A DNA stretch of 64,000 nt, taken from assembly GCF_947568905.1 (NCBI RefSeq), contig NC_079172.1:30070001-30134000 (forward strand), given 5' to 3'. The stretch's first letter is position 1; each line of letters starts with the position of its first letter. Origin of the DNA: Ostrea edulis (Eukaryota). The position numbers and the translations under genes are program-made. The notes beneath the pieces are model-generated. The model was not told the origin of the DNA. It did not search any database and saw only the letters and a list, made by a program, of their open reading frames with translations. Below are positions 13,611 through 59,766 of this stretch, in pieces.

Positions 13611-14963
13611 CGAACAATAATACAGTATACATATATAAACAAATGATGATTACACATTATATTGACAACTGTATTACTTATGTTTTCACTTGTCTGAAAA
13701 CATTGAGTGTTAATGACAATTTTATAGATTTACATTTCCAATGATTTTGTCGTTGGTATCTTTACATGAACGCGCTGCGGGTGTAAACATGCGTATATAC
13801 GTATATATATTATACATATACAACTACATATACTTGATAAATATATAGCCTATTTAAGCGGCTAGTTATTCCGAGAGAAATGATTTGAGTAATGTGTGTT
13901 GCCCCAGACTGAGAGACAATCATCAGTTGTATACAAAGACATAATGTATGAATTGTGGAAAAGCTTCCGTGGTTGGATCGAATGAGGGCAGAGATTTTAA
14001 GCGACAGGGATTTACACACATATGGTCAATATATGAATATTGTACTGCAGCGAGTTATCTAAACATACTTCAAGGATTTTGTTTACGTGTTACTGTGTCT
14101 AGCGGTTGGTTCGATATGCAGAGATGGAAATCTTTTCTGATTTTTTCATATTTCTTCTGATGCGTACGGATCAACAATCGTCGCTTGCTACCCTTACGAA
14201 ATCCGGGATTCTATGACGTGAGTGAACGGAGACAATGGGCGTGGTTTGTGTCGATGACGGACTAACATGCATTTTGTTTTGTGTTGTAGTTATTTGAGAA
14301 CAACCTCTTTCTATATAACCAATAATAAATCGATATTGCATTTTGAAATAGATTGTAAATCTTCGCCAGAAACATGTAAAGGGGTACCTGTAAAGTGCGA
14401 AACGAAATCGAAACGAAACGAAATCTACCGAAACGAAACGAAACCTACCGAAACGAAACCCACCGAAACGAAACGAAACCTACCGAAATGAAACGAAACA
14501 GATTGTATAACCGAACTCTTTTAATTATCATAATTAAAAATGGTATCTTAGGCCCCTGTGAAAGTTACCACATATAACATTCGCCTCCCCTTTGATGTAG
14601 GCTTTCGGCTTGACTGTTACAAAGTTTTAAAAGTTGGAAAAGGGTGGGTGGGGGGGGGGGGGGGGTAAGCACAAAGTACATATCCGTAGTTGATTAAATA
14701 CCATGTACAATTAGTTTTGGATCCATAAATTTCAGAACCGAGGGTTACAGTCTCAGAGATCTGGAGAAACACATTATACGAGGGGTGGGATCGCCGACGT
14801 TGGATCCGCCTTTGGGCATAGATACATTGTTTGAAGAAGCTCGTGTCTGAAAAAATTGAAAGCAGGAAGAGCTCTTAACCTCTTATTTTATCTCTAACTG
14901 CTGAGGTGCGAGTACTTTCAATAATGGAAAAACTCTATACATTTGGGGTGTTGCTAAGACGGG

Positions 14964-15301
14964 AGTAGTATAACGCGTCCCGATAGGGAGTTCAACTGAG
15001 TGCACTTTTTATGCAAATGAGGTCAAGCAAGAGCGTTTTTGATTGGTCAAGCGGTGTCGGGGTCAACGGAGTGCACTAGGACGGGGTCAACCCCAGCAGG
15101 GGTTGTAGAGCGGGTGAATAGACTGGCCTATGGCCGCTGGTCTATGATGCGGTACTTTCGCTTTGAGTTCCTGGAATGAGTTCCTGCTATTTTTCTGAAA
15201 ATCCAGTGAAATCCTGTGTATTAAATCTAAAAGAATAACAGTGTATTAAATCTAAAAGAATAACACAAGGTTTTAAGTTGACATGTTTATTAAAGAACAA
15301 T
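14964..15301 (+). repeat. Left TIR (338 bp)
   Basis: Exact reverse complement of 34725-35062 as read by eye; starts AGTAGTA; contains a 25-bp tandem duplication at 15216-15265. Confidence 0.97.
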
Positions 15302-15407
15302 AGTACAATCCCCAGAGGTGGCACGGTCCCTAGTTTTACCCAGCGCTGTCTACAGGTAATATATATATAAAGCGGCGCGCGGTGCATTGGGTGTCACTTT
15401 CGACATC

Positions 15408-18400
15408 ATGTCAGACAAGTTACCTACTGGACTTCCACGGAGTTATATTGAACAGCGATTGAGATTTTTGAATGATCAGCTGAACAGACAACGGCAGCGT
15501 GAATTACAACTCCGCAGAGAGAATCAACGACGACTACAGTATTTACAGCGGGGAGGGGGGAAAAAGAAACTCATTTCGGATTATTACAAAATTCAACTGG
15601 AACGAGGACGTCAATCACGGAAATTTAAAGTCAAGGAAAATGTCTACAATGTTGCTTTCAAACCTATTCCAGAGAAAGAAAATACAACCTTCATTCGTCG
15701 GCTCTTCCGGGATATGTTAAAAAATGTGAAACAGGAAATGCAGTGCAATCCCAATGATTATCTACGTTTAAATATTCGGCACCCGTCTCTGGATTCAGCT
15801 ATTTGGTACGAATTTACGCAGTCCAATCAGCTCAACGAGGACAAAATTCTGAACAAAATAGAATCCGTCCAGCAATCTAAAAAGGAATTCCTAATCACCG
15901 ACGGGGCAGTGCAGATGGATTTTTTCCATGTCAAATATCCACAAGGCAGCGGGTGCACTAAGAAAAAACATCTACACGTGGATAAGGAGAAATTCAAAAC
16001 CTCTAAGAGAGCGATCGTTCGCATTCAAAATCCTGAGGATTCTCTCTGCTTGTCCCGGGCTATTGTGGTAGCACGTCTACACAGCCAGAAATCAAACGAC
16101 CCGGCATGGGAAACGAAATGGTTACGCATGAGAAAAGGGGATTTCAAAACGCTCGACCAGAAACGAGAAGCGATAGCCTTGATGGAACAAGCTGGGTGTG
16201 TTATGAACCACCCGTGTGGGCCGCGTGAATGGGAGCAATTACAGCACGCGCTCGCCCCACAGTATCGATTGAAAATATTTCAATTCAAAACGAATACAAC
16301 TCGTTTACGACTGGAACCTATTTACAAAGGACCGGGGCACGGGACTTGTTTGAATATCCTGCTGGATAACGAGCATTACGATGCCATTGTGTCTATGGCT
16401 GGAGTGACGGAAAACGGATACTATTGCGATTATTGCGATGTTGGTTACAGTCACATTGAAGATCATCGGACCGTCTGTCCTCATCGATGCTCATTTTGTT
16501 TAGCCGATACCCCCTGTACCCCGGACGGGACTCAGACGAATTGCCCTCATTGTAAGGGATTTTTCAGAAATGCAGCTTGTTACCAGACCCACTTGAAACC
16601 TTACAGCAGTAATACAACAACCACGGTCTGCAGTTTAATGGGGCGGTGTAACCAGTGTCAGAAATGGATGTCCAAGCAATTATTAAAACGCCACGCGTGT
16701 GGGGGTCAAACCGAATGCCGCATCTGTCACAAAGTCGTCACCATGCCTCATCACTGCTTTGTACAGACGAAACCCAAACCTAAGAAAGAAAAAGAAGAAG
16801 AAGAGGAGTTGAAAATATACATTTATTACGATTTCGAATGCAGTCAGGAAAACGGTATTCACATCCCCAATTTATGCGTGGCAGAACGTGTGTGTCAACA
16901 TTGCGACAGTGTGGATATCGACAAGCCCTGTTCTCATTGTGAAGGATTCGGATCACAACGCCGCTTCCTATTTCAAGGACCCGACACGTTAAAACAGTTT
17001 ATGGAATGGCTCTTACAGAGCGAGACCGATGAGCAAGGCCATGTGGAACTCAAACACGATGAAGCCACCATCATTGCCCACAATTTCAAAGGATACGATG
17101 GGCAGTTTATTTTGAATTACCTGGTTCACACGGCGTGTATCAAACCCACCGTCATCCTGAACGGCAGTAAAATCTTATCCATGCAAGTCTTGGGGTTGAG
17201 ATTCATCGATTCTTACAACTTTCTACCCTTTGCTCTTGCCAAGATGCCCTCTGCTTTCGGATTAACGGAATTGAAAAAAGGATATTTCCCGCACTTTTTC
17301 AACACGACAGAGAACCAGCAGTATGTGGGTCCTTACCCGGCCGCTCATTTCTACAATCCTGACGATATGTCCACCGCCAATCGTGAAGCCTTCTATACTT
17401 GGTACCATCAACAAGAGGGCAAAGTCTTTGATTTCCAGAAAGAATTCTTAGCTTACTGCATCTCGGATGTGGATATTTTACGCCGGTGTTGTGCCCATTT
17501 CAAGTCCACCCTGTTTGATCTGGTGGAAGTAGACCCCTTTCAAGAATCCATCACGTTTGCCAGCACGGCTAATTTAGCCTACCGACGAGGATTCATGGTT
17601 GAAAATACCATCGCCATCATTCCCAATATGGGCTACCGGCCAGCACGACGATATTCAGCTAAAGCTTGTCGATGGTTCGCCTGGCTAGAACATCAACATC
17701 ACTGCATACGACATGCTAGAAATGGGGGCGAAGTCACGCTTGGACCCTATACAGTAGATGGATATGATGAGGAATCTCGTATCGTGTACGAATTCTATGG
17801 CTGTTACTGGCACGGTTGTCCCACCTGTTTCCCGAATCTGTTGACTGACATGCATCCTCATCGTGTTCAGCATACGTATCAAGACCTCTACCTGGACACC
17901 TTAAAACGAGCCAGTGCTTTAGAAGACCAAGGCTATACAGTCGTGAGCATATGGGAACACGAGTTTGATCGTCAGACCCAGACCAATCCCGACTTACAGG
18001 AATTTTTACAAGGAGTCGATATACAAGATCCTTTGAATCCCCGTGACGCTTTGTACGGAGGCCGGACCAATGCTACACGACTGTATTGTGAGGAGGGTGA
18101 CATGCGATACGTGGATGTCTGTTCCCTGTACCCGTACGTGTTGAAATACAAGCCATTTCCCGTCCAACATCCCCAAGTCATCACCAGCCATTTCACCGAT
18201 GTCAGAGACTATTTCGGGCTCATTCGTTGTCGTGTCCTCCCACCCCGAGAGCTGTATCACCCCGTATTACCTTACAAGACCGGGGGTAAATTACTCTTTC
18301 CCTTATGCCGCACCTGTGTGGAACAGCGCAACTTAGGACCCGACGAGCGGTGCCAGCACACCGATTCTGAACGCAGTCTCACGGGCACCTGGGTGACCAC

Positions 18401-19370
18401 CGAACTTCACAAAGCATTAGATCTAGGCTATCGTCTCGACCGCATTTACGAAGTTTGGCATTTTGAGAAAACCAGTGACCACTTATTTCGAGCGTATATC
18501 AACACCTTTTTGAAAATTAAACAAGAAGCTTCCGGATTCCCCGAGGATTGTCAAACAGCCCAACAGCAGCAACATTACATTGAGGAAATTCAGCAACGAG
18601 AAGGCATTGCCATGAATCCGGCAGACATCCAGAAAAATCCGGTCCGAAGAACCATTGCCAAACTCTTTTTAAATTGTTTGTGGGGAAAATTTGCTCAACG
18701 ATTACAATTACCCAAATCCCTGTATCTCACGGAAGAAGAAGAATTACAACAGAAATTACAAGATGCCACTTTAGAAGTCAAAGGCATCGAACTCTTAGAA
18801 AATCGTGAACGCCCCGAATGTGATATGATGCTGATCAATTATCAGGAGAAAGAAGAATTTTTAGAAGACTGTCCCTTTGGAAACGTGGTGCTGGCGTGTT
18901 TTACAACAGCTCATGCTCGTTTACATTTGTACGAGACGTTACAGCCTTTGGGAGAGCGTGTCTTATACTTTGACACGGATAGTATCATCTATCAGCACGA
19001 CGAGACCCAGTTCAATCCGACCATTATCAACAGTTTAGGCGGCTGGACCGATGAATTGGGTGGAGATCGTATCATCAAGTACATGTCGGGCGGGCCCAAA
19101 AATTATGCATACGAGACCCAGGGGGGAAAATCTGTCTGCAAAGTCAAAGGATTGACACTCAATTATCGTGCCTCTAGAGTCGTGTCTCTCGATACGTTGG
19201 AAAAAATGTTAAAAGGAGAAGAAGAAGAAGTCCATGTCAGCTATCCGCACTTTATTCAACGAACCCGCCAACATGATGTGCGAACCATTCCTCTGGTGAA
19301 GAAATACCGCATGGTGTATGATAAACGTCAACGTATTCATAACTATGACACGCTGCCTTACGGGTATTAA
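15408..19370 (+). CDS. pPolB: Protein-primed family B DNA polymerase with N-terminal terminal-protein region, Cys-rich Zn region and Vsr-like nuclease insert (1320 aa)
   Basis: ExoI YYDFEC, ExoII AHNFKGYDG, ExoIII YCISDV, pol motifs YVDVCSLYP, KLFLNCLWGKF, LYFDTDS, PKNY; insert VDGY..YEFYGCYWHGCP; TATA at ~15364. Confidence 0.97.
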   Translation: MSDKLPTGLPRSYIEQRLRFLNDQLNRQRQRELQLRRENQRRLQYLQRGGGKKKLISDYYKIQLERGRQSRKFKVKENVYNVAFKPIPEKENTTFIRRLFRDMLKNVKQEMQCNPNDYLRLNIRHPSLDSAIWYEFTQSNQLNEDKILNKIESVQQSKKEFLITDGAVQMDFFHVKYPQGSGCTKKKHLHVDKEKFKTSKRAIVRIQNPEDSLCLSRAIVVARLHSQKSNDPAWETKWLRMRKGDFKTLDQKREAIALMEQAGCVMNHPCGPREWEQLQHALAPQYRLKIFQFKTNTTRLRLEPIYKGPGHGTCLNILLDNEHYDAIVSMAGVTENGYYCDYCDVGYSHIEDHRTVCPHRCSFCLADTPCTPDGTQTNCPHCKGFFRNAACYQTHLKPYSSNTTTTVCSLMGRCNQCQKWMSKQLLKRHACGGQTECRICHKVVTMPHHCFVQTKPKPKKEKEEEEELKIYIYYDFECSQENGIHIPNLCVAERVCQHCDSVDIDKPCSHCEGFGSQRRFLFQGPDTLKQFMEWLLQSETDEQGHVELKHDEATIIAHNFKGYDGQFILNYLVHTACIKPTVILNGSKILSMQVLGLRFIDSYNFLPFALAKMPSAFGLTELKKGYFPHFFNTTENQQYVGPYPAAHFYNPDDMSTANREAFYTWYHQQEGKVFDFQKEFLAYCISDVDILRRCCAHFKSTLFDLVEVDPFQESITFASTANLAYRRGFMVENTIAIIPNMGYRPARRYSAKACRWFAWLEHQHHCIRHARNGGEVTLGPYTVDGYDEESRIVYEFYGCYWHGCPTCFPNLLTDMHPHRVQHTYQDLYLDTLKRASALEDQGYTVVSIWEHEFDRQTQTNPDLQEFLQGVDIQDPLNPRDALYGGRTNATRLYCEEGDMRYVDVCSLYPYVLKYKPFPVQHPQVITSHFTDVRDYFGLIRCRVLPPRELYHPVLPYKTGGKLLFPLCRTCVEQRNLGPDERCQHTDSERSLTGTWVTTELHKALDLGYRLDRIYEVWHFEKTSDHLFRAYINTFLKIKQEASGFPEDCQTAQQQQHYIEEIQQREGIAMNPADIQKNPVRRTIAKLFLNCLWGKFAQRLQLPKSLYLTEEEELQQKLQDATLEVKGIELLENRERPECDMMLINYQEKEEFLEDCPFGNVVLACFTTAHARLHLYETLQPLGERVLYFDTDSIIYQHDETQFNPTIINSLGGWTDELGGDRIIKYMSGGPKNYAYETQGGKSVCKVKGLTLNYRASRVVSLDTLEKMLKGEEEEVHVSYPHFIQRTRQHDVRTIPLVKKYRMVYDKRQRIHNYDTLPYGY

Positions 19371-19405: not shown

Positions 19406-19933
19406 ATGACGGACTACGAATCACTACATAACCCGGGTACACCACGTTATGCTCTACTGTCAGATCGAGTAACGTCGTTTGAAAATGCTCCCGAACACTT
19501 GCAGAACCTATTACCTACCATTGCAGAAGCGGGATACTTTTACAAAGGGTACGGGGATAACACGTGCTGTTTTTATTGCAACTTTGGACTTCACCATTGG
19601 GGAGCTGTCGACAATCCTTGGATACAACATGCTTATTGGTATCCTCACTGTCCTTACCTGAAGTGTAATAAGGGTAAACAATGGGTACGACAAGCCTTCA
19701 ATGCCTATGCCCGCGCTAAAGACAGTGGTTGCGATTGGGAAGGCTTACCCTTAGACGCGGCAGGGAATCCAATGTGTACCCAGAAATGTCACATTTGTTT
19801 AGAACGAGACTTGAGAATTGCTTTTTTACCTTGTGGTCATTTATGTACTTGTGCTATATGTGCTACGGGACTGAAACAATGTCCTATTTGTAGACATAGT
19901 GTTGAGCAAGCTGTACGTATTTTTATTTGTTAA
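19406..19933 (+). CDS. iap: Inhibitor of apoptosis (single BIR + C-terminal RING), 175 aa
   Basis: BIR RVTSF..AEAGYFY..CFYC..LHHW..D.PW.QH...PHCPYL; RING CHIC..LPCGHLCTCAIC..CPICR. Confidence 0.95.
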   Translation: MTDYESLHNPGTPRYALLSDRVTSFENAPEHLQNLLPTIAEAGYFYKGYGDNTCCFYCNFGLHHWGAVDNPWIQHAYWYPHCPYLKCNKGKQWVRQAFNAYARAKDSGCDWEGLPLDAAGNPMCTQKCHICLERDLRIAFLPCGHLCTCAICATGLKQCPICRHSVEQAVRIFIC

Positions 19934-19973: not shown

Positions 19974-20612
19974 ATGTATACCTACGAGACACTTGAACCT
20001 TTTCAGTTGAAACATGAATTTACCATGGTGGTGGCTGGACCCTCTAAATCGGGTAAAACAGAATTTGTCAAGCAACTGGTGCAAAATACACAGTGGATTG
20101 CACCGCCTCCCGAAAAGATAGTATGGTGTTATCGAGAATGGCAGTCCGCGTACGAATCCTTACAGGACAAGGTCACTTTTATCCGCAATATACCTCAAGA
20201 CGATGAGCAGATAGTGGCGGATCTCAGTACGCGTCATCTACTCATTTTTGATGATATGATGGGAGGTAAAGCCATCGAATCGATTGTCGACTGGTTTACG
20301 CGCAAAGCGCATCATCGCAATACCAGTGTCATTTATATCACACAAAATCTGTTTGATCGAGCAGTACAACATCGTACCATCAGTCTGAATGCTCACTATC
20401 TCGTGCTGTTTAAAAATCCTCGAGATAAATCTCAGATTGGGGTGTTAAGTCGGCAATTACAAATGCCGCATTTACTTCCAGCCTATGAGGACGCCACCCG
20501 TGTACCTCACGGGTATTTACTAGTGGACTTGAGTCCTCAGACGTCGGACGATTTAAGATTAAGAAGTCAACTCTTTACCAACTTGGCTGTGCACATGCCC
20601 CCGAGAGTATAA
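19974..20612 (+). CDS. A32-like FtsK/HerA DNA packaging ATPase
   Basis: Walker A GPSKSGKT, Walker B LLIFDD, ITQN and LNAHYLVLFKNPRD motifs. Confidence 0.95.
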   Translation: MYTYETLEPFQLKHEFTMVVAGPSKSGKTEFVKQLVQNTQWIAPPPEKIVWCYREWQSAYESLQDKVTFIRNIPQDDEQIVADLSTRHLLIFDDMMGGKAIESIVDWFTRKAHHRNTSVIYITQNLFDRAVQHRTISLNAHYLVLFKNPRDKSQIGVLSRQLQMPHLLPAYEDATRVPHGYLLVDLSPQTSDDLRLRSQLFTNLAVHMPPRV

Positions 20613-21904: not shown

Positions 21905-22668
21905 GTCGAAAAATGGTATTGGTACCGGAAGCGATGCTCAACGAATTAAAAGGCAAATTACCTAAACCTCCCGAATTTACCTCGACTATTGGTTTACGCA
22001 GTGATTTGGACGAGATTGAACATCGAGATGATTTAACCGAGAAAGAAAAAGTGGGGTTGTACGGGCATCAACTTCATCGCTATCGTCAATATTTACAACA
22101 AGCTCGACATCCCAACCCAGCCACTCGGCCCTCCCCAACCAGTGCAGCCAGTGCCACCTCACCACCCACAACCGCCGCAGCACCCGATGACTTGGAGGAA
22201 CAGATTATCAAAAGCGTCAATAAACCGGGTCGAAAGAAAGCAGGTTTATTACTCGATCATCTCAAGAAATCCAAAGTGGTGACTTGGAATAAAGAAGGAG
22301 AAATCAGCTATAGAGGACGCAGGGTTCCCGATTCCAATATTGTGGATTTAATGACCGAAGCCCAACGACAAAGACCCTTAAGACATCGTGATCCCCCCAC
22401 GGGATTAGAGGAATTTGCTCAAGCGTTAAAAGAGACTCATGCTCCCAAAGGATATGTGAACAATCGGGATGTTATAAAAGCCATGGACAAACCAGGGAAA
22501 ATCAGTACGCCTAGACCTCTAGAGGAAGAGGAGAGCGGATTTCAAGAAATCTCGGGTTTTGACCAATCGTTCTATGAAACTCCCAGACGAATGATGACCC
22601 CTAAAAATATCTGGGAGGCCAGTAAAAAGACATCACGTGAAATTGGAAAATGGTTAAATCTACCATGA
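21901..22668 (+). CDS. Conserved Maverick protein upstream of integrase, function unknown
   Basis: KMVLVP start; LLLDHL..WNKEGEI..G..VPDSNIVDL motif typical of Maverick ORFs. Confidence 0.8.
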   Translation: MSRKMVLVPEAMLNELKGKLPKPPEFTSTIGLRSDLDEIEHRDDLTEKEKVGLYGHQLHRYRQYLQQARHPNPATRPSPTSAASATSPPTTAAAPDDLEEQIIKSVNKPGRKKAGLLLDHLKKSKVVTWNKEGEISYRGRRVPDSNIVDLMTEAQRQRPLRHRDPPTGLEEFAQALKETHAPKGYVNNRDVIKAMDKPGKISTPRPLEEEESGFQEISGFDQSFYETPRRMMTPKNIWEASKKTSREIGKWLNLP

Positions 22669-23735
22669 AAGCAGAACAGATCTTACAGCGACTGTATTAC
22701 GATCCCAAGACAGGGTATGGGGGAGTCCAGGCGTTGTATCGTCAAGTGCGTCAATTAGGACACAAGATTACCCTGTCTCAAATTCGAGAATGGGTGAAAG
22801 CTCAAGATACCTATACCTTGCATAAACCGATACGGAGGAAATTCAAGCGACGACAAACACGAGTGACGGATATGGATGAACAATGGCAATTAGATTTAGC
22901 CGATGTCTCCAGCTTGAAACAAGACAATAATGGGTATACGTTTTTATTATGTGCCATTGACGTGCTGTCTAAATATGCCTGGGTCGTGCCTTTAAAACAG
23001 AAAACGGGTAAAGAAATGATACGAGGCTTACGAGGGATTTTTCGAGAGGGACGTCGCCCCGTCCGCATTCAGTCCGATCAAGGAAAAGAATTTACCAATA
23101 AAGAATTTCGTCAAGCCTTCAAATCCATTCATTTCTTTACGACCCGTAATGCCGAAACCAAAGCCAGTATTGTGGAACGTTTTCAACGCACGCTGAAAGC
23201 ACGCATGTGGCGGTATTTTACACGTCATAAAACACGACGGTATGTCGATGTCTTGGGGGATCTGGTGTATGGTTACAATCATACCTATCATCGCAGTATC
23301 CGGCGAGCTCCTGCTCAAGTCAATGCCAAGAATGTCTTGACCGTATGGAAAACCTTGTATGGAAAACAGAGTGCCGATACCGCGAGTCGCTTGCAAGTGG
23401 GGGATCGTGTACGCATTAGTAAAGCCAAACGTACGTTTGAAAAAGGATATTTACCGAATTGGACCAAAGAGCTGTTTACCATCTCTAGAAAAGTGCCAGG
23501 ACGAAACGTCTATCGCATTCAAGATGATCACGGGGAAGAATTAGAAGGAACGTTTTACGAGAAGGAATTACAACAAGTGATTAAAGACGATGATGTCTAT
23601 GAAGTGGAAGAAATCTTAGGGTATAAAAAGCGGCGTGTGGGAAAAAAAGTCATTTCAGAAGTCAAAGTGCGTTGGAAAGGATATCCTCCCAGTTTTGATT
23701 CATGGATTCCGCAAGCGGATCTCATTCGGCCATGA
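22665..23735 (+). CDS. int: Retroviral-like DDE integrase with C-terminal chromodomain
   Basis: WQLDLAD, QSDQGKEF, VERFQRTLK; chromo YEVEEIL..VRWKGYPPSFDSWIP. Confidence 0.96.
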   Translation: MKAEQILQRLYYDPKTGYGGVQALYRQVRQLGHKITLSQIREWVKAQDTYTLHKPIRRKFKRRQTRVTDMDEQWQLDLADVSSLKQDNNGYTFLLCAIDVLSKYAWVVPLKQKTGKEMIRGLRGIFREGRRPVRIQSDQGKEFTNKEFRQAFKSIHFFTTRNAETKASIVERFQRTLKARMWRYFTRHKTRRYVDVLGDLVYGYNHTYHRSIRRAPAQVNAKNVLTVWKTLYGKQSADTASRLQVGDRVRISKAKRTFEKGYLPNWTKELFTISRKVPGRNVYRIQDDHGEELEGTFYEKELQQVIKDDDVYEVEEILGYKKRRVGKKVISEVKVRWKGYPPSFDSWIPQADLIRP

Positions 23736-27900: not shown

Positions 27901-28398
27901 ATGGATACTCAGCAATTGAGAGATGTTTTACAACGAGATTTAGGACCGGCGTTTGCCGGTGTGTATCCTCGAGATGTCATACCTGAGCTGTTACCTCATC
28001 ACAAAGCCATCGTGGTGAATACAGACCCTCACGATCGCCCTGGAGCGCATTGGGTCTGTTTGTATTTGAGTAGCCCTACCGTCGAATATTTTGATTCTTA
28101 CGGATTACCTCCCAGCCATAAAGACATCCAAGACTTTATTCAACGCCACGGAGAGACTTGGATTCATAACACCCATTGTTATCAAGATTTGAATACGGAT
28201 GTCTGTGGACAATACTGTGTGTATTTTTTACATCAACGCCATCGCCATAGAAGCACCGTACGAGAATGGTTACTTCCCTGGAAAGGCACGGCCTTACAAC
28301 GCGATCGTTTTGTGGCGGATTGGTTTAAAGAGACCTTCCGTAAACCGAGAACCCATCAAGGACAAACTTGTCAATGTCAAAGACTGAATGTATTGTAA
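27901..28398 (+). CDS. Adenain-like cysteine maturation protease
   Basis: NTD..PGAHWV, YFDSYG, Q..TDVCGQYC catalytic motifs. Confidence 0.95.
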   Translation: MDTQQLRDVLQRDLGPAFAGVYPRDVIPELLPHHKAIVVNTDPHDRPGAHWVCLYLSSPTVEYFDSYGLPPSHKDIQDFIQRHGETWIHNTHCYQDLNTDVCGQYCVYFLHQRHRHRSTVREWLLPWKGTALQRDRFVADWFKETFRKPRTHQGQTCQCQRLNVL

Positions 28399-31165: not shown

Positions 31166-31384
31166 TCAAATACATAACTCCCACACACAACACCAATTCA
31201 CATGTCTTTTTAAAATAGGGTCCAACATTTTTTCCATTTCTCGAATCCTGCGTTGAAATCGATAGCGATCAGCGGCTACAGTCATCCAGATACTTGTCCG
31301 GTCTTCTTCGGGTAACAGATGCACTTCATTTTGATCCAGATTAAAAGTCACACGTTTAACTTGACGTACATCTCTCGAAGACAT
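31166..31384 (-). CDS. DP71L/ICP34.5/GADD34-like PP1-eIF2alpha adaptor (72 aa)
   Basis: RVxF motif KRVTF plus R..W...AADRYRFQRRI..ME..L..IL; AATAAA 15 nt after the stop. Confidence 0.88.
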   Translation of the reverse strand: MSSRDVRQVKRVTFNLDQNEVHLLPEEDRTSIWMTVAADRYRFQRRIREMEKMLDPILKRHVNWCCVWELCI

Positions 31385-31653
31385 CGTAGTCTGATTTTCT
31401 CGATTTCTGCTCTGTCTGTGGGTCGAATTCGTTTCAATTCCTGGCCCATTAAATGAATCAGTACTAAGGCTTGCGGGGTGATCCGGTTCTCGATCAAATA
31501 CTGACAGAGACATGGATAGTCCTTTAAGCTGATGGGAAATAATTCTTCTCGCATATAGTGTAACACAAATTCAAACTGCCCAGAATGAATGTCTGTGAGA
31601 TAATCCAATACATAAACTATCGCTTTCTCTGTGATGTGGTCACTGCTGGCCAT
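31348..31653 (-). CDS. Helical multigene-family member A (probable divergent Bcl-2 fold), 101 aa
   Basis: FPISLKDY..LVLIHLMGQELKR.P..EIE; DNA around the start nearly identical to member B. Confidence 0.65.
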   Translation of the reverse strand: MASSDHITEKAIVYVLDYLTDIHSGQFEFVLHYMREELFPISLKDYPCLCQYLIENRITPQALVLIHLMGQELKRIRPTDRAEIEKIRLRCLREMYVKLNV

Positions 31654-31987
31654 CCTCCGGGAATAAATGAAATGAATTAAGTTCTTCACACTTTATGTAT
31701 ACTTCTCGAAGCCAGTCCTTGGTGATACTTTCAATCTCGGCGGTTTTTTCAGGCATGCGTTTCTTGAATTCCTCCCCCGCGACATAAATTAACATCAACC
31801 CCGCATCGTTATAGAGATTGATGTACACATGGTTCCGTAGATCTGTATATTCGTCCAGAGTCATTGGAAACACCCCCGCTATCAGATAATTTTTAACAGC
31901 TTGAAACACCGTATCGTCTTGCATTTTCTCCACCCATTCTAATGCATGGTTATGCGCTTTTTCTGCGATGTTGTCACTGCTGGCCAT
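31640..31987 (-). CDS. Helical multigene-family member B (probable divergent Bcl-2 fold), 115 aa
   Basis: FPMTLDEY..NDAGLMLIYVAGEEFKKRMPEK..EIE..WLREVY. Confidence 0.65.
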   Translation of the reverse strand: MASSDNIAEKAHNHALEWVEKMQDDTVFQAVKNYLIAGVFPMTLDEYTDLRNHVYINLYNDAGLMLIYVAGEEFKKRMPEKTAEIESITKDWLREVYIKCEELNSFHLFPEDGQQ

Positions 31988-32015
31988 CCTCCAGGAATAA
32001 AGGAAAAGAAAACGG

Positions 32016-32369
32016 TTAGGTTTTTTTATACACCTTTTCCAGCCAGTGATCGGTAATCGCTACAATCGCCCCAGTCTTCTCAGGTTCCCGTCGTCTAAAT
32101 TCTTGGTCCATGTTATAAATCATGATCAATCCAGACTCTCTGTTCAGGTTGTCGGCTATATGCTTGCAAACGCTGGAATATTCATATAAGGTCATAGGAA
32201 ATTCCCAAAAGATCAACAACTTCATGGCGAATTTATATCTCAACGGCTGTTTTTCTTTCCAGTCCTTGATACACTGTAATGCAGCGCTACGAGCGTTGTT
32301 CACCGATTCTTTGTAGTCCTCGAAATGCTGTAATACAGCGGTAAGAACGTTGTTGGTCAATTCAGCCAT
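32016..32369 (-). CDS. Helical multigene-family member C (probable divergent Bcl-2 fold), 117 aa
   Basis: FPMTLYEY..NRESGLIMIYNMDQEFRRREPEK..WLEKVY. Confidence 0.65.
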   Translation of the reverse strand: MAELTNNVLTAVLQHFEDYKESVNNARSAALQCIKDWKEKQPLRYKFAMKLLIFWEFPMTLYEYSSVCKHIADNLNRESGLIMIYNMDQEFRRREPEKTGAIVAITDHWLEKVYKKT

Positions 32370-32406
32370 GATGATCAAAATGAAAAAATTCCAAAACGTT
32401 CTTGTT

Positions 32407-32739
32407 TTATAACAGGCCAGCCATTCCTTTCATACGAATCAGTTCCACGAATCCTTTTTGTAGACAATCGCGTAAGATCCGATCAATGTCACTCATCTGG
32501 TCTGGAAGATTCTGTTTCAATTCCTCAGCATACAAATAAATCATGAGTAAACGTCCCGTATTGGTATTCTCCGCTAATGAATCAGCAATCCGTTGAAAAC
32601 TATGTACATTTCTGACCTCCGGTGACATCTGTTGTACAAATTGACGAGCATTTTGAATGTGAGGATTATGTAAGGCCACGTTCATACATTGTAGTACATA
32701 ACTATATCCATTTATTCTCGTAGTAGCACTGCCGCCCAT
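32407..32739 (-). CDS. Helical multigene-family member D, the most Bcl-2-like; possible N-myristoylation (MGGSAT), 110 aa
   Basis: BH1-like SFQRIADSL..TNTGRLLMIYLYAEEL; BH2-like LQKGFVELI. Confidence 0.65.
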   Translation of the reverse strand: MGGSATTRINGYSYVLQCMNVALHNPHIQNARQFVQQMSPEVRNVHSFQRIADSLAENTNTGRLLMIYLYAEELKQNLPDQMSDIDRILRDCLQKGFVELIRMKGMAGLL

Positions 32740-32763: not shown

Positions 32764-32843
32764 CACCTGTATTTATAGGTAAAGGTTATGCATCACGTGA
32801 TCAAACACCTGCACCACGTGATCAAACACCTGTACGTCAGCTG
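32764..32843. promoter_or_regulatory. E-box-rich bidirectional promoter with a 21-bp tandem repeat
   Basis: CACCTG x3, CACGTG x2, CAGCTG x1; minus-strand TATAAAT at 32771-32777. Confidence 0.6.
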
Positions 32844-32878: not shown

Positions 32879-33385
32879 ATGGATACACGGAGAATTTTAA
32901 GAGCGAGACGCCGCCGCCAGGGAATACAACCAGTAGAGAATTTAACCATAGTAGAAGATTATGTAGACGAGATGGAGATCTGGGATAATTTAGTACAGAG
33001 ATGTCGCCATCGATTACGCTGGGGCCGATCTAAAAATTGGTGTTTTGACTATGTATTGCGGTCACATGAAACAGTGGAGGATATTTACCTGCGTTTAAGT
33101 GACATGTACCTGAAAAATTCCCCCCTCATACAGTACATGATTTACCAGTTTTACACGTTATTGAACGGCACTCAAAAAGTATCGGGATTTATTCGACTGG
33201 AGAAACCACGTTACCGGAGAAGTGTATGGGTATTGTTTTGGGATGCACACTGGATGTGGGAAACCGTCGAAGAGATACGTTTCCCCGGGAGAAGAGCTCG
33301 ACAATTAGTACAACACATTATATCCGAAGATCATGACTTACACGTGTATATAGAAGAACCTGCGTATGAAGCCGGCCATTTTTAA
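32879..33385 (+). CDS. Inactivated CRESS-DNA-virus Rep-like HUH endonuclease domain (168 aa)
   Basis: Motif I-like RSKNWCF; YMIYQ..NGTQKVSGFIRLEKP..AHW aligns by eye with circovirus-type YxIxxxE..GTPHLQGF..AHxE; catalytic His and Tyr absent. Confidence 0.65.
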   Translation: MDTRRILRARRRRQGIQPVENLTIVEDYVDEMEIWDNLVQRCRHRLRWGRSKNWCFDYVLRSHETVEDIYLRLSDMYLKNSPLIQYMIYQFYTLLNGTQKVSGFIRLEKPRYRRSVWVLFWDAHWMWETVEEIRFPGRRARQLVQHIISEDHDLHVYIEEPAYEAGHF

Positions 33386-33404
33386 AAATAAAAACTTCAT
33401 GCAC

Positions 33405-33705: not shown

Positions 33706-34623
33706 ATGGCTCAGAAACAACTAGAATTTGTGGACAAAGCTCAGAAGAAAATAGATCAGCTGGTACAGAAGGAGATGGGGCCACAGAAAGACTACATTGA
33801 ACTGAAGAAAGCTAAGAGTGACGATCAGAAGACTGAACTGGGGAAGACCTCGAACTTCTTGCTCACGTCTCCAGACTACGTTGCTCAAAGAAGAAGAGAA
33901 GAGAAGAAGATGGCCCAGACCTCGAACCAGACCACGAGCTTCAATCTCACGCCTTCAGACCACGTTGCTCGACAAGTGAAGATGGCCCAGACCTCGGATT
34001 ACCTCCCTAGCCAGAATCCGACAGACCCGGGATTAGGCTTCTATTTTCCCGATTCACAGGACGCTACGGGACTGGAGATGGGCTTATACGATAAACCCCC
34101 CTTCGGCGGAGAAGATTCCCCCATGAGCAGGACCGATTTCGCCATCATTACCACGACACTAGACGGGATCGTTAACCGCATTAATGTGCTGAGTAATGAG
34201 ATTGGAAATCATACCACAATCCTACTGAAGAAGCTGGAAGACCTGACTTCTAAAAAACCTAGGAAGGAATACACTCCAGATTACACTGCTAACCCGTGCT
34301 ACACGTGTGGAGAAACAGGACATTGGTCGCCGGATTGCCCACAGAAAACAGATTATCCGCAGACCAGTAAGAAATCGTGGTCGGCAGATTCTCAACAGAC
34401 CAGCAAGAAAACCAAACAAAAGGATCCTTGCTTCAAATGCGGAAAAATAGGACACTGGATTAGTGAGTGTCCAGAAGAACAAGCGGAGATAGATGCGATG
34501 ATTGGACCCGTACCTGGCTCAAAACCACCTGTGAAGAGAGAATACACACCGTTAGAGATGTGGAATCCACCCGCACCTACTGAAGAACGGCCAAAAAAGA
34601 AGAAGAAACTCAGCAGAAAGTAA
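33706..34623 (+). CDS. Double CCHC zinc-knuckle protein with coiled coil and NLS (305 aa)
   Basis: CYTCGETGHWSPDC and CFKCGKIGHWISEC; PKKKKK; TATAAAAG at 33647; AATAAA 34735 inside the right TIR. Confidence 0.85.
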   Translation: MAQKQLEFVDKAQKKIDQLVQKEMGPQKDYIELKKAKSDDQKTELGKTSNFLLTSPDYVAQRRREEKKMAQTSNQTTSFNLTPSDHVARQVKMAQTSDYLPSQNPTDPGLGFYFPDSQDATGLEMGLYDKPPFGGEDSPMSRTDFAIITTTLDGIVNRINVLSNEIGNHTTILLKKLEDLTSKKPRKEYTPDYTANPCYTCGETGHWSPDCPQKTDYPQTSKKSWSADSQQTSKKTKQKDPCFKCGKIGHWISECPEEQAEIDAMIGPVPGSKPPVKREYTPLEMWNPPAPTEERPKKKKKLSRK

Positions 34624-34724
34624 TGGACTGTGCTTGAACTGTTATACTTATTGAACTGTTTTTTATGCTTATTGAACTGTTTTTATGTTTATTGAATTGT
34701 TTTGCATTGTTCTATGCTTGTACC

Positions 34725-35062
34725 ATTGTTCTTTAATAAACATGTCAACTTAAAACCTTGTGTTATTCTTTTAGATTTAATACACTGTTATTCTTTTAGA
34801 TTTAATACACAGGATTTCACTGGATTTTCAGAAAAATAGCAGGAACTCATTCCAGGAACTCAAAGCGAAAGTACCGCATCATAGACCAGCGGCCATAGGC
34901 CAGTCTATTCACCCGCTCTACAACCCCTGCTGGGGTTGACCCCGTCCTAGTGCACTCCGTTGACCCCGACACCGCTTGACCAATCAAAAACGCTCTTGCT
35001 TGACCTCATTTGCATAAAAAGTGCACTCAGTTGAACTCCCTATCGGGACGCGTTATACTACT
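34725..35062 (-). repeat. Right TIR (338 bp)
   Basis: Ends ...CGTTATACTACT followed by TSD GACGGG. Confidence 0.97.
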
Positions 35063-36017
35063 GACGGGGAATTGAAAACGGGACGGAAAACGGAATTTTT
35101 TTAATGCAATAATATTAGGAGGAGGTCGGCATTTTGTAAACTGAAAAGGCTTAAGAACGAGGTAATTTTAAGCAGAAATCACAAAGAGAACGGGAGGGCA
35201 TATTCAGAATCCACCGTTTGATATACTACATACAAATACACAATATCCACATGTATACATATATTTGTCTTCAGAGCAAAAAATACTGAAACATGTATTT
35301 ATGTCCAAAGGCGGATCCAACGCCGACGACCCCATCCCTCGTTTAGTGTGTTTCCCCAGACCTCTGACCTGTGAGACTGTAACCTTCCGTTCTGAAATTG
35401 ATGATATTTATGTACTTTGTGCTTACCACCCCCCCCCCCCTTTCCAACTTTTAAAACTTTGTATCAGTCAAGCCGAAAGCCTACATCAAAAGGGAGGCGA
35501 ATTTTATTTATATGTGTAAACTTTAACAAGGGCCTAAGATACCATTTTTAATTATTATAAATAAAAGAGTTCAATTATACAATCTGTTTCGTTTCGTTTC
35601 GGTAGGTTTCGTTTCGTTTCGGTGGGTTTCGTTTCGTTTAGGTAGATTTCGTTTCGTTTCGGTAGATTTCGTTTCGTTTTGGTAGATTTCGTTTCGTTTC
35701 GTTTCGATTTCGTTTCGCACTTTACAGGTACCCCATGTAAAGTGGCATTATCAGCAAATAAATCGATGTTACAGTATATGGCCATAAATGAGTCATGATT
35801 TAATTTTTTTTTCGCTATAAAAATATGTAATGAGCTATCAATAACGTTGCAATAGGTTAAAAAAAATTTCAATGACATATGAAATGAGGACTCACTTATA
35901 CGGCCATATACTGTAGAGTTTTAAATGCATGGTGGATCATTACTGTAACACAGAAATAAAAGCGGTCATAGTATAGACCCTTGCGGAACTCCCGTTGCGA
36001 CTGACTGGTATTGGTTA

Positions 36018-56000: not shown

Positions 56001-59000
56001 GGCGAGGTTCACTGATTTGACTGCTGATGAAATACAAAATTAATCAGAAGAAACGCTGACCAGAAACATGAAAATGTAATCATTAATTGGATATTGGGTT
56101 ATGTTTTCTTTTAAACTAGTGGATACGGTAAAAGTTCAAAGTCAACAAACCATGTGCACATATACATGTAGTAAAAACAAGCAAAATAAATGAAGGCAGT
56201 TATAGACCATGTCCTCAGACAACAGCTGTTTTGTTTGACCATCGAACGGATCTGAGGGCCAGTCAAACAATACAGCTGTTGTCCTTGAACCCAGTCAATA
56301 TCTTCTCAATATCAAAAAAATCTGAAAATTGAAAGGGGTCTTCCTCTGCCTAATCCAAGTATTATGTATAAAGTTTATGAAAATCTTTCCAAGAAATCAA
56401 GTTATTGTGTGCCATATGGTGGGGCCCTAATAATGTGATTAATAACACCATTTTATGGTGGGCCCTAATAATGTGATTAATAACACCATTTTAATGATCA
56501 TGAGCACCTTCAATATTTGTGTTTTCCATTATGATAGATGGCAGCAGTATTTGAACGATGACAATGCGAGTGGAACAGATAAGCAGCCAGTTTGCTATTT
56601 CTCAAATGTGAAACGATGCCCAAGTGATCTGGAAATTTGTCCCTCGCCAGCATCATATACCCTCAGCAGAAATCGAAACAGCAATACAACAGCAGGAGCT
56701 GCTCCTACAGTATCTGCAGCTAATGTCCACAGAATGTCCAATCTCTATCTGTCACAAAACTTACAAAATAGTCAGCAGAGTGCAACTTCGTCATGCTGGA
56801 CAAAGTCAACTTCCATGTCTGAATCTCATAATGACACATTGTTACAACCAACTTCATTGTCTGGAAATCCTACCATAAAACAACAGCAAACAGTAGCCAT
56901 AAAAGGGCTTCACGATACTGGAATTAACAATTCACAGGTACCACAGGAAAGTGATATAGAAATGACTCCAGTGCAAACACTGACAGGAAATCTTATTCCT
57001 ACCACCCCTCAAAACTTCGGAGACTATGCCCTCACCATTAATCCCATGAATTATGCAGATGACATTGTTTACCAGTGTGATCCAGCTTCCAATGTCAATG
57101 TGCCAAAGGATCAAGAGAAAACAGAAAGCATGGAATTTGGTTCCATTATGTCTAATGCAGTTAAGGCTCTGCATGGAGACCTGGATGTATACAATGCCGC
57201 TCCTGAACAGTATCAGTTATCTGAATACAACGAATCTGTGCCATACATGAATCCACAATTAGATGTTCCACCACTGTATGTGCAGCCCTCCGGATCAAAT
57301 GAGAACTGCCACATTTTCAAATATCAAGAGGAAAACAACAGACCCATTAAGAAGCGGTCGTACAAAATTATTGAAGGTCTCCTGGAGAATGAAGTGTGGA
57401 GGGCAAAGTTTTATCAAAACAAGTCAGCCTCAACGACCACCCAGTTACAGAATGTTGCAGCCTCAACGACCACCCAGTTACAGAATGTTACAGCCTCAAC
57501 GACCACCCGGTTACAGAATGTTGCAGCCTCAACGACCACCCAGTTACAGAATGTTACAGCCTCAACGACCACCCAGTTACAGAATGTTGCAGCCCCAACG
57601 ACCACTCAGTTACAGAATGTTACAGCCTCAACGACCACCCAGTTACAGAATGTTGCAGCCTCAACGACCACTCAGTTACAGAATGTTGCAGCCTCAACGA
57701 CCACTCAGTTACAGAATATTACAGCTTCAACACCTATACAGTTACAGAATGTTACTGCCTCAACGACCACTCAGTTACAGAACATTGCAGCCTCAATGAC
57801 CACTCAGTTACAGAGTGATACTGCCTCAACGACCACTCAGTTACAGAATATGGCAGCCTCAACAACCACTCTGTTACAAAACGATACAACCTCAACACCC
57901 ATTCCATTACAGAATGTTACAGCCTCAACATTCACTCCATTACAGAATGTTACAACTTCAACTCCATTACAGAATGTTACAGCCTCATTCTCAATGCCAT
58001 TACAGAATGTTACAGCCTCAACACCCACTCCATTACAGAAAGTTTCAGCCTCATTCTCCACGCCATTACAGAATGTTACAGCCTCATTCTCCACTCCATT
58101 ACAGAATGTTACAGCCTCAACACCCACTCCATTACAGAATGTTTCAGCCTCATTCTCAATGCCATTAAAGAATGTTACAGCCTCATTTGCCATGCCATTA
58201 CAGAATGTTACAGCCTCATTTGCCATGCCATTACAGAATGTTACAGCTTCAACATCCACTCCATTACAGAATGTTACAGCCTCATTCTCCACACCATTAC
58301 AGAATGTTACAGCCTCAACACCCACTCCATTACAGAATGTTACAGCCTCAACATTCACTCCGTTACAGAATGTTACAACTTCAACTCCATTACAGAATGT
58401 TATAGCCTCATTCTCCACACCATTACAGAATGTTACAGCCTCAACACCCACTCCATTACAGAATGTTTCAGCCTCATTCTCCATGCCATTACAGAATGTT
58501 ACAGCCTCATTCTCCACTCCATTACAGAATGTTACAGCCTCAACATCCACTCCATTACATAATGTTGCAGCCTCAACACCCATTCCATTACATAATGTTG
58601 CAGCCTCAACACCCACTCCATTACAGAATGTTACAGCCTCATTCTCCACTCCATTACAGTATGTTACAGCCTCAATCTCCACTCCATTACAGAATGTTAC
58701 AGCCTCAACACCCACTCCATTACAGAATGTTACAGCCTCATTCTCCACTCCATTACAGTATTTTACAGCCTCAACATCCACGCCATTACAGAATATTAGA
58801 GCCTCAACACCCATTCCGTTAGCGAATGTTACAAATGATTGTGTATCACAAGACAGGGTACAGATTCACAGTGAAGAAAGAGAAAACGAAGCAAGTTGTC
58901 ACACAGCAGTAAGGGACAATCATATAAGCGAGAAACATGATGACAGTAATGTTACTACAAATATTCTGCAAAAGGTCGACTCTGATGTAGCACACATGTC

Positions 59001-59766
59001 AGCTAGTCAAGCTGGGCCTTTGAATGAAACTCAAGAAACTGGTGAATACGTAGAACTGCTCCTAGGATTAAAAGCAGATAATGTGAATTCTATAGAACAA
59101 AATCAAAGCGAGACAACAGTCATCTACGACACCGAGTACAGCAAAGATAGTGGAAGTTTAAATGAAGAGGTTGCGGAACTAGAAGTCAAAAGAACAGAAA
59201 ACTTTGAGATTCTGGTGGAGACTAAACGTAACGACCATAATGGATCTAATTTGCAGTATGACATGGAGATTGGACCTGCAGAAAAATCAGGAGTTGACGA
59301 TGAAGAGGATTCAAGTAAAAAATATTCTGAGGTAGAAATTGTCATTGATAATGCAGAGGAGCTGTCTGTGACATCTTGTGAAGAAAAATATTACAGCAGT
59401 AATTTATCAGAAGCTGTGTCAGAAACCACAGATGATGGGGGTCCTAGAGAAGTTAAGGAAGAAGTTGTGAAAGACAATGTCTCTGAATCTTTACCTAATC
59501 AGGGAGAGAGCCTCAATTCAAAGAATATGGTGATTTATAGTAACATGCAACAAAATCCCAAAGATGATCATGAACAACTAAAATGCTCCAACAAGTTCGA
59601 ATGTACAGGAGATCATTCAAATTTGGAGTCAGGAGATGCCCCCAGAAGTGTAAAGGACATAGCTCTGGAAACAAAAAACAAATCCACTAGATCTATGAAA
59701 TCTGTAAATAAGAAGAGGCATCAATACAATTCACCGGTCCGTGCATCTAAAAGACATAAGCAATGA
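42156..59766 (+). CDS. SoxH: SoxH/Sox30-like HMG-box transcription factor, 8 exons: 42156-42591, 43735-43989, 50930-51436, 51550-51723, 51888-52140, 54269-54402, 54709-54826, 56538-59766 (5106 nt, 1701 aa)
   Basis: HMG VKRPMNAFMLWAR..NAEIS..LG..W..HRKDFPG|WVYQP resembles Sox30; all introns GT-AG with compatible phases (1,1,1,1,2,1,2). Confidence 0.85.
45059..45433. mobile_element. 375-bp near-perfect palindromic MITE, CACAGG termini, 8-bp TSD GATTTATG
   Basis: Arms mirror each other over most of the length; TSD at 45051-45058 and 45434-45441. Confidence 0.88.
47493..47620. mobile_element. 128-bp palindromic MITE, CACAGG termini, 8-bp TSD ATGAAAAC
   Basis: TSD at 47485-47492 and 47621-47628. 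Confidence 0.88.
48095..49393 (+). mobile_element. Helentron-type non-autonomous element with satellite units
   Basis: 5' TTTTTAGGTCACCTGAATAAACTCAGGTGACC; 3' CAGGTGACCGATAAGGCC..CTCTTGTT. Confidence 0.7.
49454..49550. mobile_element. MITE-like relic related to 10101 and 40209 (no TSD seen)
   Basis: CAGTCTGATTAAAACCAGA..TCTGGTTTTAATCAAACTG. Confidence 0.55.
50638..50846 (+). mobile_element. 5'-truncated 3' end of the Penelope-like retroelement
   Basis: Matches 10800-11005. Confidence 0.75.
52888..54010. mobile_element. Helentron-type element(s), degenerate
   Basis: TTTTTTAGCTCACCTGAGCTAAAAGCTCAAGTG start; satellite-like interior. Confidence 0.55.
57423..58830 (+). repeat. Coding 33-bp (11-aa) tandem repeat, ~42 units, in the last SoxH exon
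   Basis: ASTTTQLQNVA/T block followed by AS(F/T)(S/P)TPLQNVT block. Confidence 0.92.

Follow-up and report, generated by a model that had tools for sequence, protein, structure and literature searches.

Why should a Polinton keep, under selection, the endonuclease domain of a replication protein that has apparently lost the means to cut DNA? The question is raised by an open reading frame (ORF) of 168 amino acids at 32879..33385 of the window, that is, of the whole 64,000-nucleotide stretch analysed (contig NC_079172.1), which lies in a host genome of 895 Mb, presumably that of an animal. An earlier note on this DNA had read the ORF as a captured, catalytically dead Rep (HUH) domain of circovirus type. 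The ORF sits within an intact 20.1-kb element, 14964-35062 of the window, that is a Polinton/Maverick (Polintoviricetes): it encodes pPolB and an rve integrase, and it has the long terminal inverted repeats (TIRs), the AGT ends and the 6-bp target-site duplication (TSD) by which Polintons are recognised structurally. The gene and its parts, compared with Reps from CRESS DNA viruses, whose genomes are circular, single-stranded and Rep-encoding, are as follows:

32879..33385 (+): Rep-like ORF, 168 aa, consisting of just an N-terminal extension and a CRESS-type HUH endonuclease domain
33026..33058 (+): motif I equivalent, residues 50-60, RSKNWCFDYVL, strand 1, with the canonical T and NN replaced
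33128..33154 (+): strand 2, residues 84-92, with Tyr92 at the position of the metal-binding Glu of CRESS Reps
33167..33190 (+): motif II equivalent, residues 97-104, GTQKVSGF, with Lys100 and Ser102 in place of His and Gln
33257..33262 (+): W127-E128, probably what is left of the strand bridging single-stranded DNA (ssDNA), aligned by global HHalign only, in a part of the model where confidence is below 50
33314..33325 (+): motif III position, residues 146-149, HIIS; YITK in metagenomic subfamily D
33365..33376 (+): C-terminal YEAG, the counterpart of the ExG closing Rep endonuclease domains
33387..33392 (+): AATAAA directly 3′ of the stop codon, a candidate polyadenylation signal judging by its letters
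32794..32820 (no strand): two CACGTG (E-box-like) copies in the divergent upstream intergenic region

The protein belongs to a small family, with 8 matches in 1.84 billion representative proteins. A genome search for the gene, in which 150 of 154 candidates were scored, gave 148 matches. In the window's own subfamily, A, 82 of 86 loci are full-length and without stops, and 4 are split. About 50 further loci encode proteins 30-59% identical to that of the window, and the 20 non-identical ones that were retrieved define subfamilies B and C. Metagenomic relatives, known from proteins alone, are P0002, subfamily D (P0003-P0006 and P0020-P0022) and P0007. The subfamilies are 36-51% identical to one another.

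Is the likeness to Reps one of descent? The peptides RSKNWCF, QYMIYQ, NGTQKVSGFIRLEKP and AHW, which the earlier note had lined up with Rep motifs, are present in the ORF in the order it gave. Of motif I, the WCF stands, but the T and NN are lost; AHW, offered as the equivalent of AHxE, is a chance match, His124 being found in 1 of 19 family rows, and it is W127-E128 (16/17 and 14/17 rows) that aligns with the CRESS 'HWE'. Pfam Viral_Rep (PF02407) recognises the window's ORF at E=0.015 and 16 bits, below the 26-bit cut-off, so that the gathering score is not reached; 8 of 15 family members match, the best at E 0.0082. When the family profile was aligned by HHalign with 58 CRESS Rep domains, a set chosen by motifs I and II, the probability was 95.0% (95.0-95.6% over runs), with E 3.9e-8 and a score of 49.5 over 69 columns. 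This score exceeds those of 200/200 shuffles (maximum 19.9 in 100 column shuffles and 34.4 in 100 six-column block shuffles; reversed, 14.3), and the probability is still 89% after masking of the motif II octamer. The C-terminal halves alone fail to align (HHalign probability 0.22) and do so in global mode only. Seven motif matches are collinear between family and Reps; YEAG occurs in 14/18 family rows and ExG in 37/58 Reps, and the protein ends two residues after YEAG.

Structure points the same way, with some reserve. For the HUH fold, of five strands and three helices, we obtained a low-confidence model with four strands, running strand-helix-strand-strand-helix-helix-strand, an order that fits the Rep layout described in PMC10288648 save for strand 4. 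Foldseek against 350,542 PDB chains ranks a circovirus Rep domain first and has seven CRESS Rep domains and two papillomavirus E1 proteins (E1 DNA-binding domain, ranks 9-10) in its top 13 rows; against BFVD it gives 19 matches at E<=0.001, and all nine that are named are Reps. The ESM Atlas matches for the relative P0003 are Rep-clan clusters, a weak recognition, below threshold. One might still suppose that there is no Rep ancestry at all and that a generic ferredoxin-like or RRM fold has come by chance to resemble Rep motifs. VIA-align did not single out Reps from generic ferredoxin-like folds, PDB sequence searches with the protein returned noise only, and no full-length Rep was found among the 8 matches or among longer proteins, although the want of longer homologues is weak evidence. 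Against this stand the collinear motifs, the profile scores above all shuffles, both Foldseek rankings and the YxxK retained in subfamily D, and we find a chance resemblance scarcely credible. The likeness goes beyond chance, and homology to the CRESS-type Rep endonuclease domain is, in our judgement, highly probable.

What, then, became of the active site? Porcine circovirus 2 (PCV2) Rep is described as binding metal via Glu48, His57 and Gln59 (10.1101/2020.09.01.278671), which correspond to Y92, K100 and S102 in the family. The Glu stands eight or nine residues before the His in 58/58 Reps; Tyr92, Lys100 and Ser102 each occur in 18/18 family rows with a residue at that position. The replacement of HLQ by KVS, seen earlier in the window, thus extends to the family as K-x-S at motif II in 18/18 rows, and the third metal ligand, Glu, has gone as well, replaced by Tyr92. 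In motif I, WCF is kept and the Thr position is D or E in 17/17 rows. At motif III, YxxK is found in 56/58 Reps; the Tyr is missing, as had been noted, from the window's subfamily (HIIS), from B and C (AITC/AITS) and from P0007 (FITS), but is kept in subfamily D (YITK). The metal site is therefore absent in all subfamilies, while a single branch still has the nucleophilic Tyr; since the tree is unrooted, the sequence in which the residues were lost can only be surmised. The absence of a helicase is also borne out: the protein stops where the endonuclease domain ends, and neither a superfamily 3 (SF3) helicase nor an oligomerisation domain, which hexamerises PCV2 Rep (PMC10288648), is present in it. 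Since these residues and domains are missing, the protein would be unable to nick canonically with metal, to form a Rep hexamer or to unwind DNA, and we think it very likely, going by its residues, that no canonical nicking takes place. Retained are a basic N-terminal stretch and the conserved R106, K109, R111, R113 and R139.

Purifying selection keeps this gene. In a polymorphism set of 80 of the 82 intact A copies, on average 1.3% from the window and scored against the window copy, variants shared by at least two copies number 21 synonymous and 20 non-synonymous (pN/pS 0.25, p=1.4e-5; 0.15 in residues 50-110), and singletons are near neutral (pN/pS 0.78, p=0.28); one non-synonymous count is an artefact of splitting a two-base change. 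The pattern would fit copies that are selected while the element replicates and that drift once inserted. For the neighbouring genes pN/pS is 0.32 (B4), 0.36 (zinc knuckle), 0.65 (B3) and 0.72 (B2). Comparisons of one subfamily with another give dN/dS values of 0.12-0.49, but dS is close to saturation, and 2/8 A-B pairs are saturated; A and C share 45.5% identity in the Rep-like protein and 79-91% in core genes. Capsid matches served as the denominator for presence of the gene (213 candidates; 142 of 150 scored rows used, 8 fragment rows dropped). Among the matches listed, the gene lies within 12 kb of a capsid match at 82/83 A loci, 36/47 B/C loci and 0/12 loci of a distant Polinton family, of which three elements gave no profile match for it. 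Seven B/C loci without the gene were retrieved: four keep both flanks, the gene having been removed by deletion between direct repeats, and two C copies without it have the same deletion. Because pN/pS is low while some B/C copies have lost the gene by deletion, the gene is selected yet dispensable in cis, and it diverges fast.

What could such a protein do? We propose that an ancestor of the Polinton lineage acquired, once, a CRESS-type Rep endonuclease domain, from a donor that can be conjectured only, and that the active site was then overwritten, with Glu, His and Gln giving way to Tyr, Lys and Ser in all subfamilies. The product, which selection preserves while the element replicates, is most likely a small nuclear, non-catalytic DNA-binding accessory factor whose basic flanks and fixed Lys would hold phosphates at the former metal site. 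It would act in trans on the element's ends or on displaced single strands, tuning protein-primed replication or transcription. We favour a binding factor because inactivated HUH domains serve as origin binders in polyoma- and papillomaviruses, a precedent that the earlier note invoked and that is found in PMC13595969, and because the invariant residues are either basic or placed on what was the active-site face. The papovavirus domain, however, is joined to an active SF3 helicase, and replication cannot do without it (PMC13595969), whereas the Polinton protein is stand-alone and dispensable in cis. Nucleic-acid binding as the main job of the protein seems moderately probable to us and, given binding, the element's own DNA is its probable target; on the whole proposal, a non-catalytic accessory factor acting on that DNA, we are evenly divided. 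Two observations weigh against it: the main ssDNA-reading strand has diverged, and variants of the element ends do not follow the subfamilies of the protein, which suggests that ends have been exchanged between subfamilies.

The Rep scaffold may instead have lost DNA binding too and become a modulator of the host through protein-protein contacts, like the neighbouring Bcl-2-like, PP1-binding and inhibitor-of-apoptosis (IAP) genes. The gene lies within an accessory block, diverges at accessory-gene rates and can be lost in cis, its DNA-contact motifs have diverged, and its core is rich in aromatic residues (19-23 of about 118, against a mean fraction of 0.11 in Reps); but the invariant Y92, K100 and S102 on the former active-site face, with several Arg and Lys, suit a phosphate ligand, and we regard a host modulator as unlikely. 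Defence against CRESS viruses, with the dead domain acting as a decoy on their origin or, less likely, poisoning their Rep, has been proposed for the Reps captured by avipoxviruses (apvReps), where a cytoplasmic location counted against it (PMC10193959). A Polinton must presumably reach the nucleus to integrate, and its protein keeps the basic N-terminal stretch. Yet the origin-reading motifs have diverged, and a genome search gave no endogenous Viral_Rep match, although that search's control also gave none. The dominant-negative action suggested earlier, if it were to work by co-assembly into Rep hexamers, is itself unlikely, because the protein ends with the endonuclease domain and has no oligomerisation domain. 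Taken together, these points make defence rather improbable.

Could the active site have been rebuilt? Lys100 would then replace the metal and Tyr92, or the motif III Tyr in subfamily D, would serve as nucleophile, so that DNA is nicked without metal, perhaps at the element end. In favour of this, the three residues now at the metal-ligand positions do not vary across subfamilies as distant as those described above, and 16/25 ends of A, B and C elements have TAGTATAAC, which differs from the CRESS nonamer by one base. This comparison is post hoc and covers only two lineages, and the universal AGTAGT end supplies four of the nine bases; 9/25 ends differ, and in the distant family the candidate ends are AGTAGTAAG. 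Furthermore, gene-less copies have normal ends, the rve integrase accounts for integration, and we know of no HUH enzyme that works by a metal-free Lys/Tyr scheme. A rebuilt site is thus very improbable. A related idea, in our eyes a long shot, is that the Rep domain became a reader of the element's own ends, with the invariant Lys replacing the metal and the protein recognising the TAGTATAAC terminus in the role of origin factor when replication is primed by protein, or even nicking there without metal. If true, this would be an independent Polinton repeat of the HUH-to-origin-binding switch of polyoma- and papillomaviruses, with subfamily D as the surviving half-way state. The element ends (14964-14990; L021-L039, L232-L241) have AGTAGTATA in common and are highly variable at about positions 10-20.

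As to the donor, descent from a CRESS-type Rep holds, but the circovirus named in the earlier note cannot be singled out: nano-, gemini- and redondovirus Reps nearly equal circovirus Reps in Foldseek, and a quick, unrooted tree of 114 columns groups the family as one clade, whose long branch (4.09) falls outside 58 unclassified Reps. Since CRESS-like Reps occur in Gulliviroviridae virophages (10.64898/2026.10.13.758929), in adomaviruses and parvoviruses (PMC11071296) and in Replitrons (PMC10288648), transfer through another mobile element is possible, and all of these are donor candidates. In the passages concerned, these Reps are treated as replicases or transposases, unlike the dead Polinton copy, and a dead accessory Rep copy in a pPolB/integrase Polinton does not figure there. 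Replitrons, like the Polinton protein, have no helicase, but they keep HUQ, YxxK and a putative oligomerisation domain (PMC10288648).

The closest precedent is that of apvRep-1, -3 and -4 (PMC10193959), an analogy drawn from their description rather than from a sequence alignment. As described there, these too derive from a cressdnavirus Rep captured by a double-stranded DNA (dsDNA) virus and reduced to the endonuclease domain, with HUH/HUQ inactivated and the catalytic Tyr and oligomerisation domain missing; they are under purifying selection (apvRep-1 dN/dS 0.23), and their loss is tolerated. The Polinton gene differs in its integrating host element, as against a cytoplasmic poxvirus, and in not being the krikovirus-derived avipoxvirus gene; it is one gene, not five, its replacement residues are invariant, its donor is not traceable, and its product keeps a basic N-terminal stretch where apvReps lost the region of the nuclear localisation signal (PMC10193959). 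U94 of human herpesvirus 6 (HHV-6) is likewise an ssDNA-virus Rep captured by a dsDNA virus, with endonuclease motifs inactivated, but it is parvovirus-derived and keeps its helicase (PMC10193959). The capture thus resembles the known apvRep kind, in a new setting. In full-text literature searches, and in passages of PMC8502044, PMC11296320 and 10.1101/2025.04.19.649669, no report of such a gene in Polintons was found; nor were family names or motifs found in paper supplements, although bioRxiv supplements may list the gene and line ends can split motifs. Rep capture by dsDNA viruses accordingly extends from pox- and herpesviruses to Polintons, and a Polinton ancestor is implied to have shared cells with a CRESS-type replicon. 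The purpose of endonuclease-only dead Reps has been a question since the apvRep paper, and the Polinton family makes it more approachable, with some 80 copies that are nearly identical, five subfamilies or more, deletion variants that arose in nature, a natural series in which the motif III Tyr is present or absent, and the element end as a candidate substrate.

By Pfam, the gene content of the Polinton comprises pPolB, IAP, an A32-like ATPase, an rve integrase with chromodomain and a C5 protease. Of the Polinton morphogenetic module (ATPase, protease and double-jelly-roll capsid), the first two have Pfam matches, and the capsid genes are candidates. Its remaining features are:

14964..15308 (+): left TIR, 345 nt, starting AGTAGT; TSD GACGGG at 14958-14963
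15408..19370 (+): ORF, PF03175 (E 2.5e-57)
19406-19933 (+): IAP gene with BIR and RING (Pfam), adjoining pPolB
19974..20612 (+): A32-like packaging ATPase, PF04665 (E 5.4e-7)
22650..23735 (+): rve integrase with chromodomain, PF00665 and PF00385
26490..27893 (+): probable major capsid protein, judged by its size, its place in the element and its conservation; Pfam and PDB searches with the capsid candidate genes gave no match
27901..28398 (+): adenovirus-type cysteine protease, PF00770 (E 2.9e-4, just under the cut-off)
32407..32739 (-): Bcl-2-like ORF, last of four paralogues and divergent upstream neighbour, PF00452 (E 0.0066, weak)
33706..34623 (+): two-CCHC zinc-knuckle protein, downstream neighbour, PF00098 (E 3.1e-15)
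34718..35062 (-): right TIR, a 100% complement of the left one; TSD GACGGG at 35063-35068

The first 147 nt of the TIR (14964-15110) fold better than 200/200 shuffles (z -3.26). In the 20 divergent loci, the zinc-knuckle gene adjoins the Rep-like gene in 20/20 and the Bcl-2-like gene in 18/20. The upstream E-box pair is present in subfamily A and is not found upstream in the three C loci examined; two B loci have a single CACGTG, at another place than in A. The four tandem paralogous ORFs (101-117 aa, 31348-32739, -), of which one weakly matches Bcl-2 (E 0.0066), vary in copy number between elements, the 32016-32369 copy being absent or partial in 17/80 A copies. An ORF at 31166-31513 (-) carries a PP1 catalytic-subunit binding region (PF10488, E 1.9e-5) and is presumably a GADD34/ICP34.5-like candidate; it is conserved in B and C, with short matches in the distant Polinton family. 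In that family, 11 of the 12 scored capsid matches, among those listed, lie on contig C8 (G000:C8), at loci 3.9-52.1 Mb, and a CARD is fused to two PC4-like domains (L226:5652-6683, L229:3302-4321). PC4 is an ssDNA-binding fold, and the PC4-like protein may take the functional place of the Rep-like gene. A 4.6-kb element, L023:3305-7862, which has its two ends, an inverted pair of zinc-knuckle genes and a single Rep-like gene but no core-gene matches, is a possible non-autonomous derivative. Outside the Polinton, a 1103-aa ORF (56455-59766, +) has weak Pfam matches only. The flanking host DNA forms imperfect inverted repeats with a TTTCG-rich array (14381-14827 and 35293-35734), so that an inverted-repeat element was probably there first and received the Polinton.
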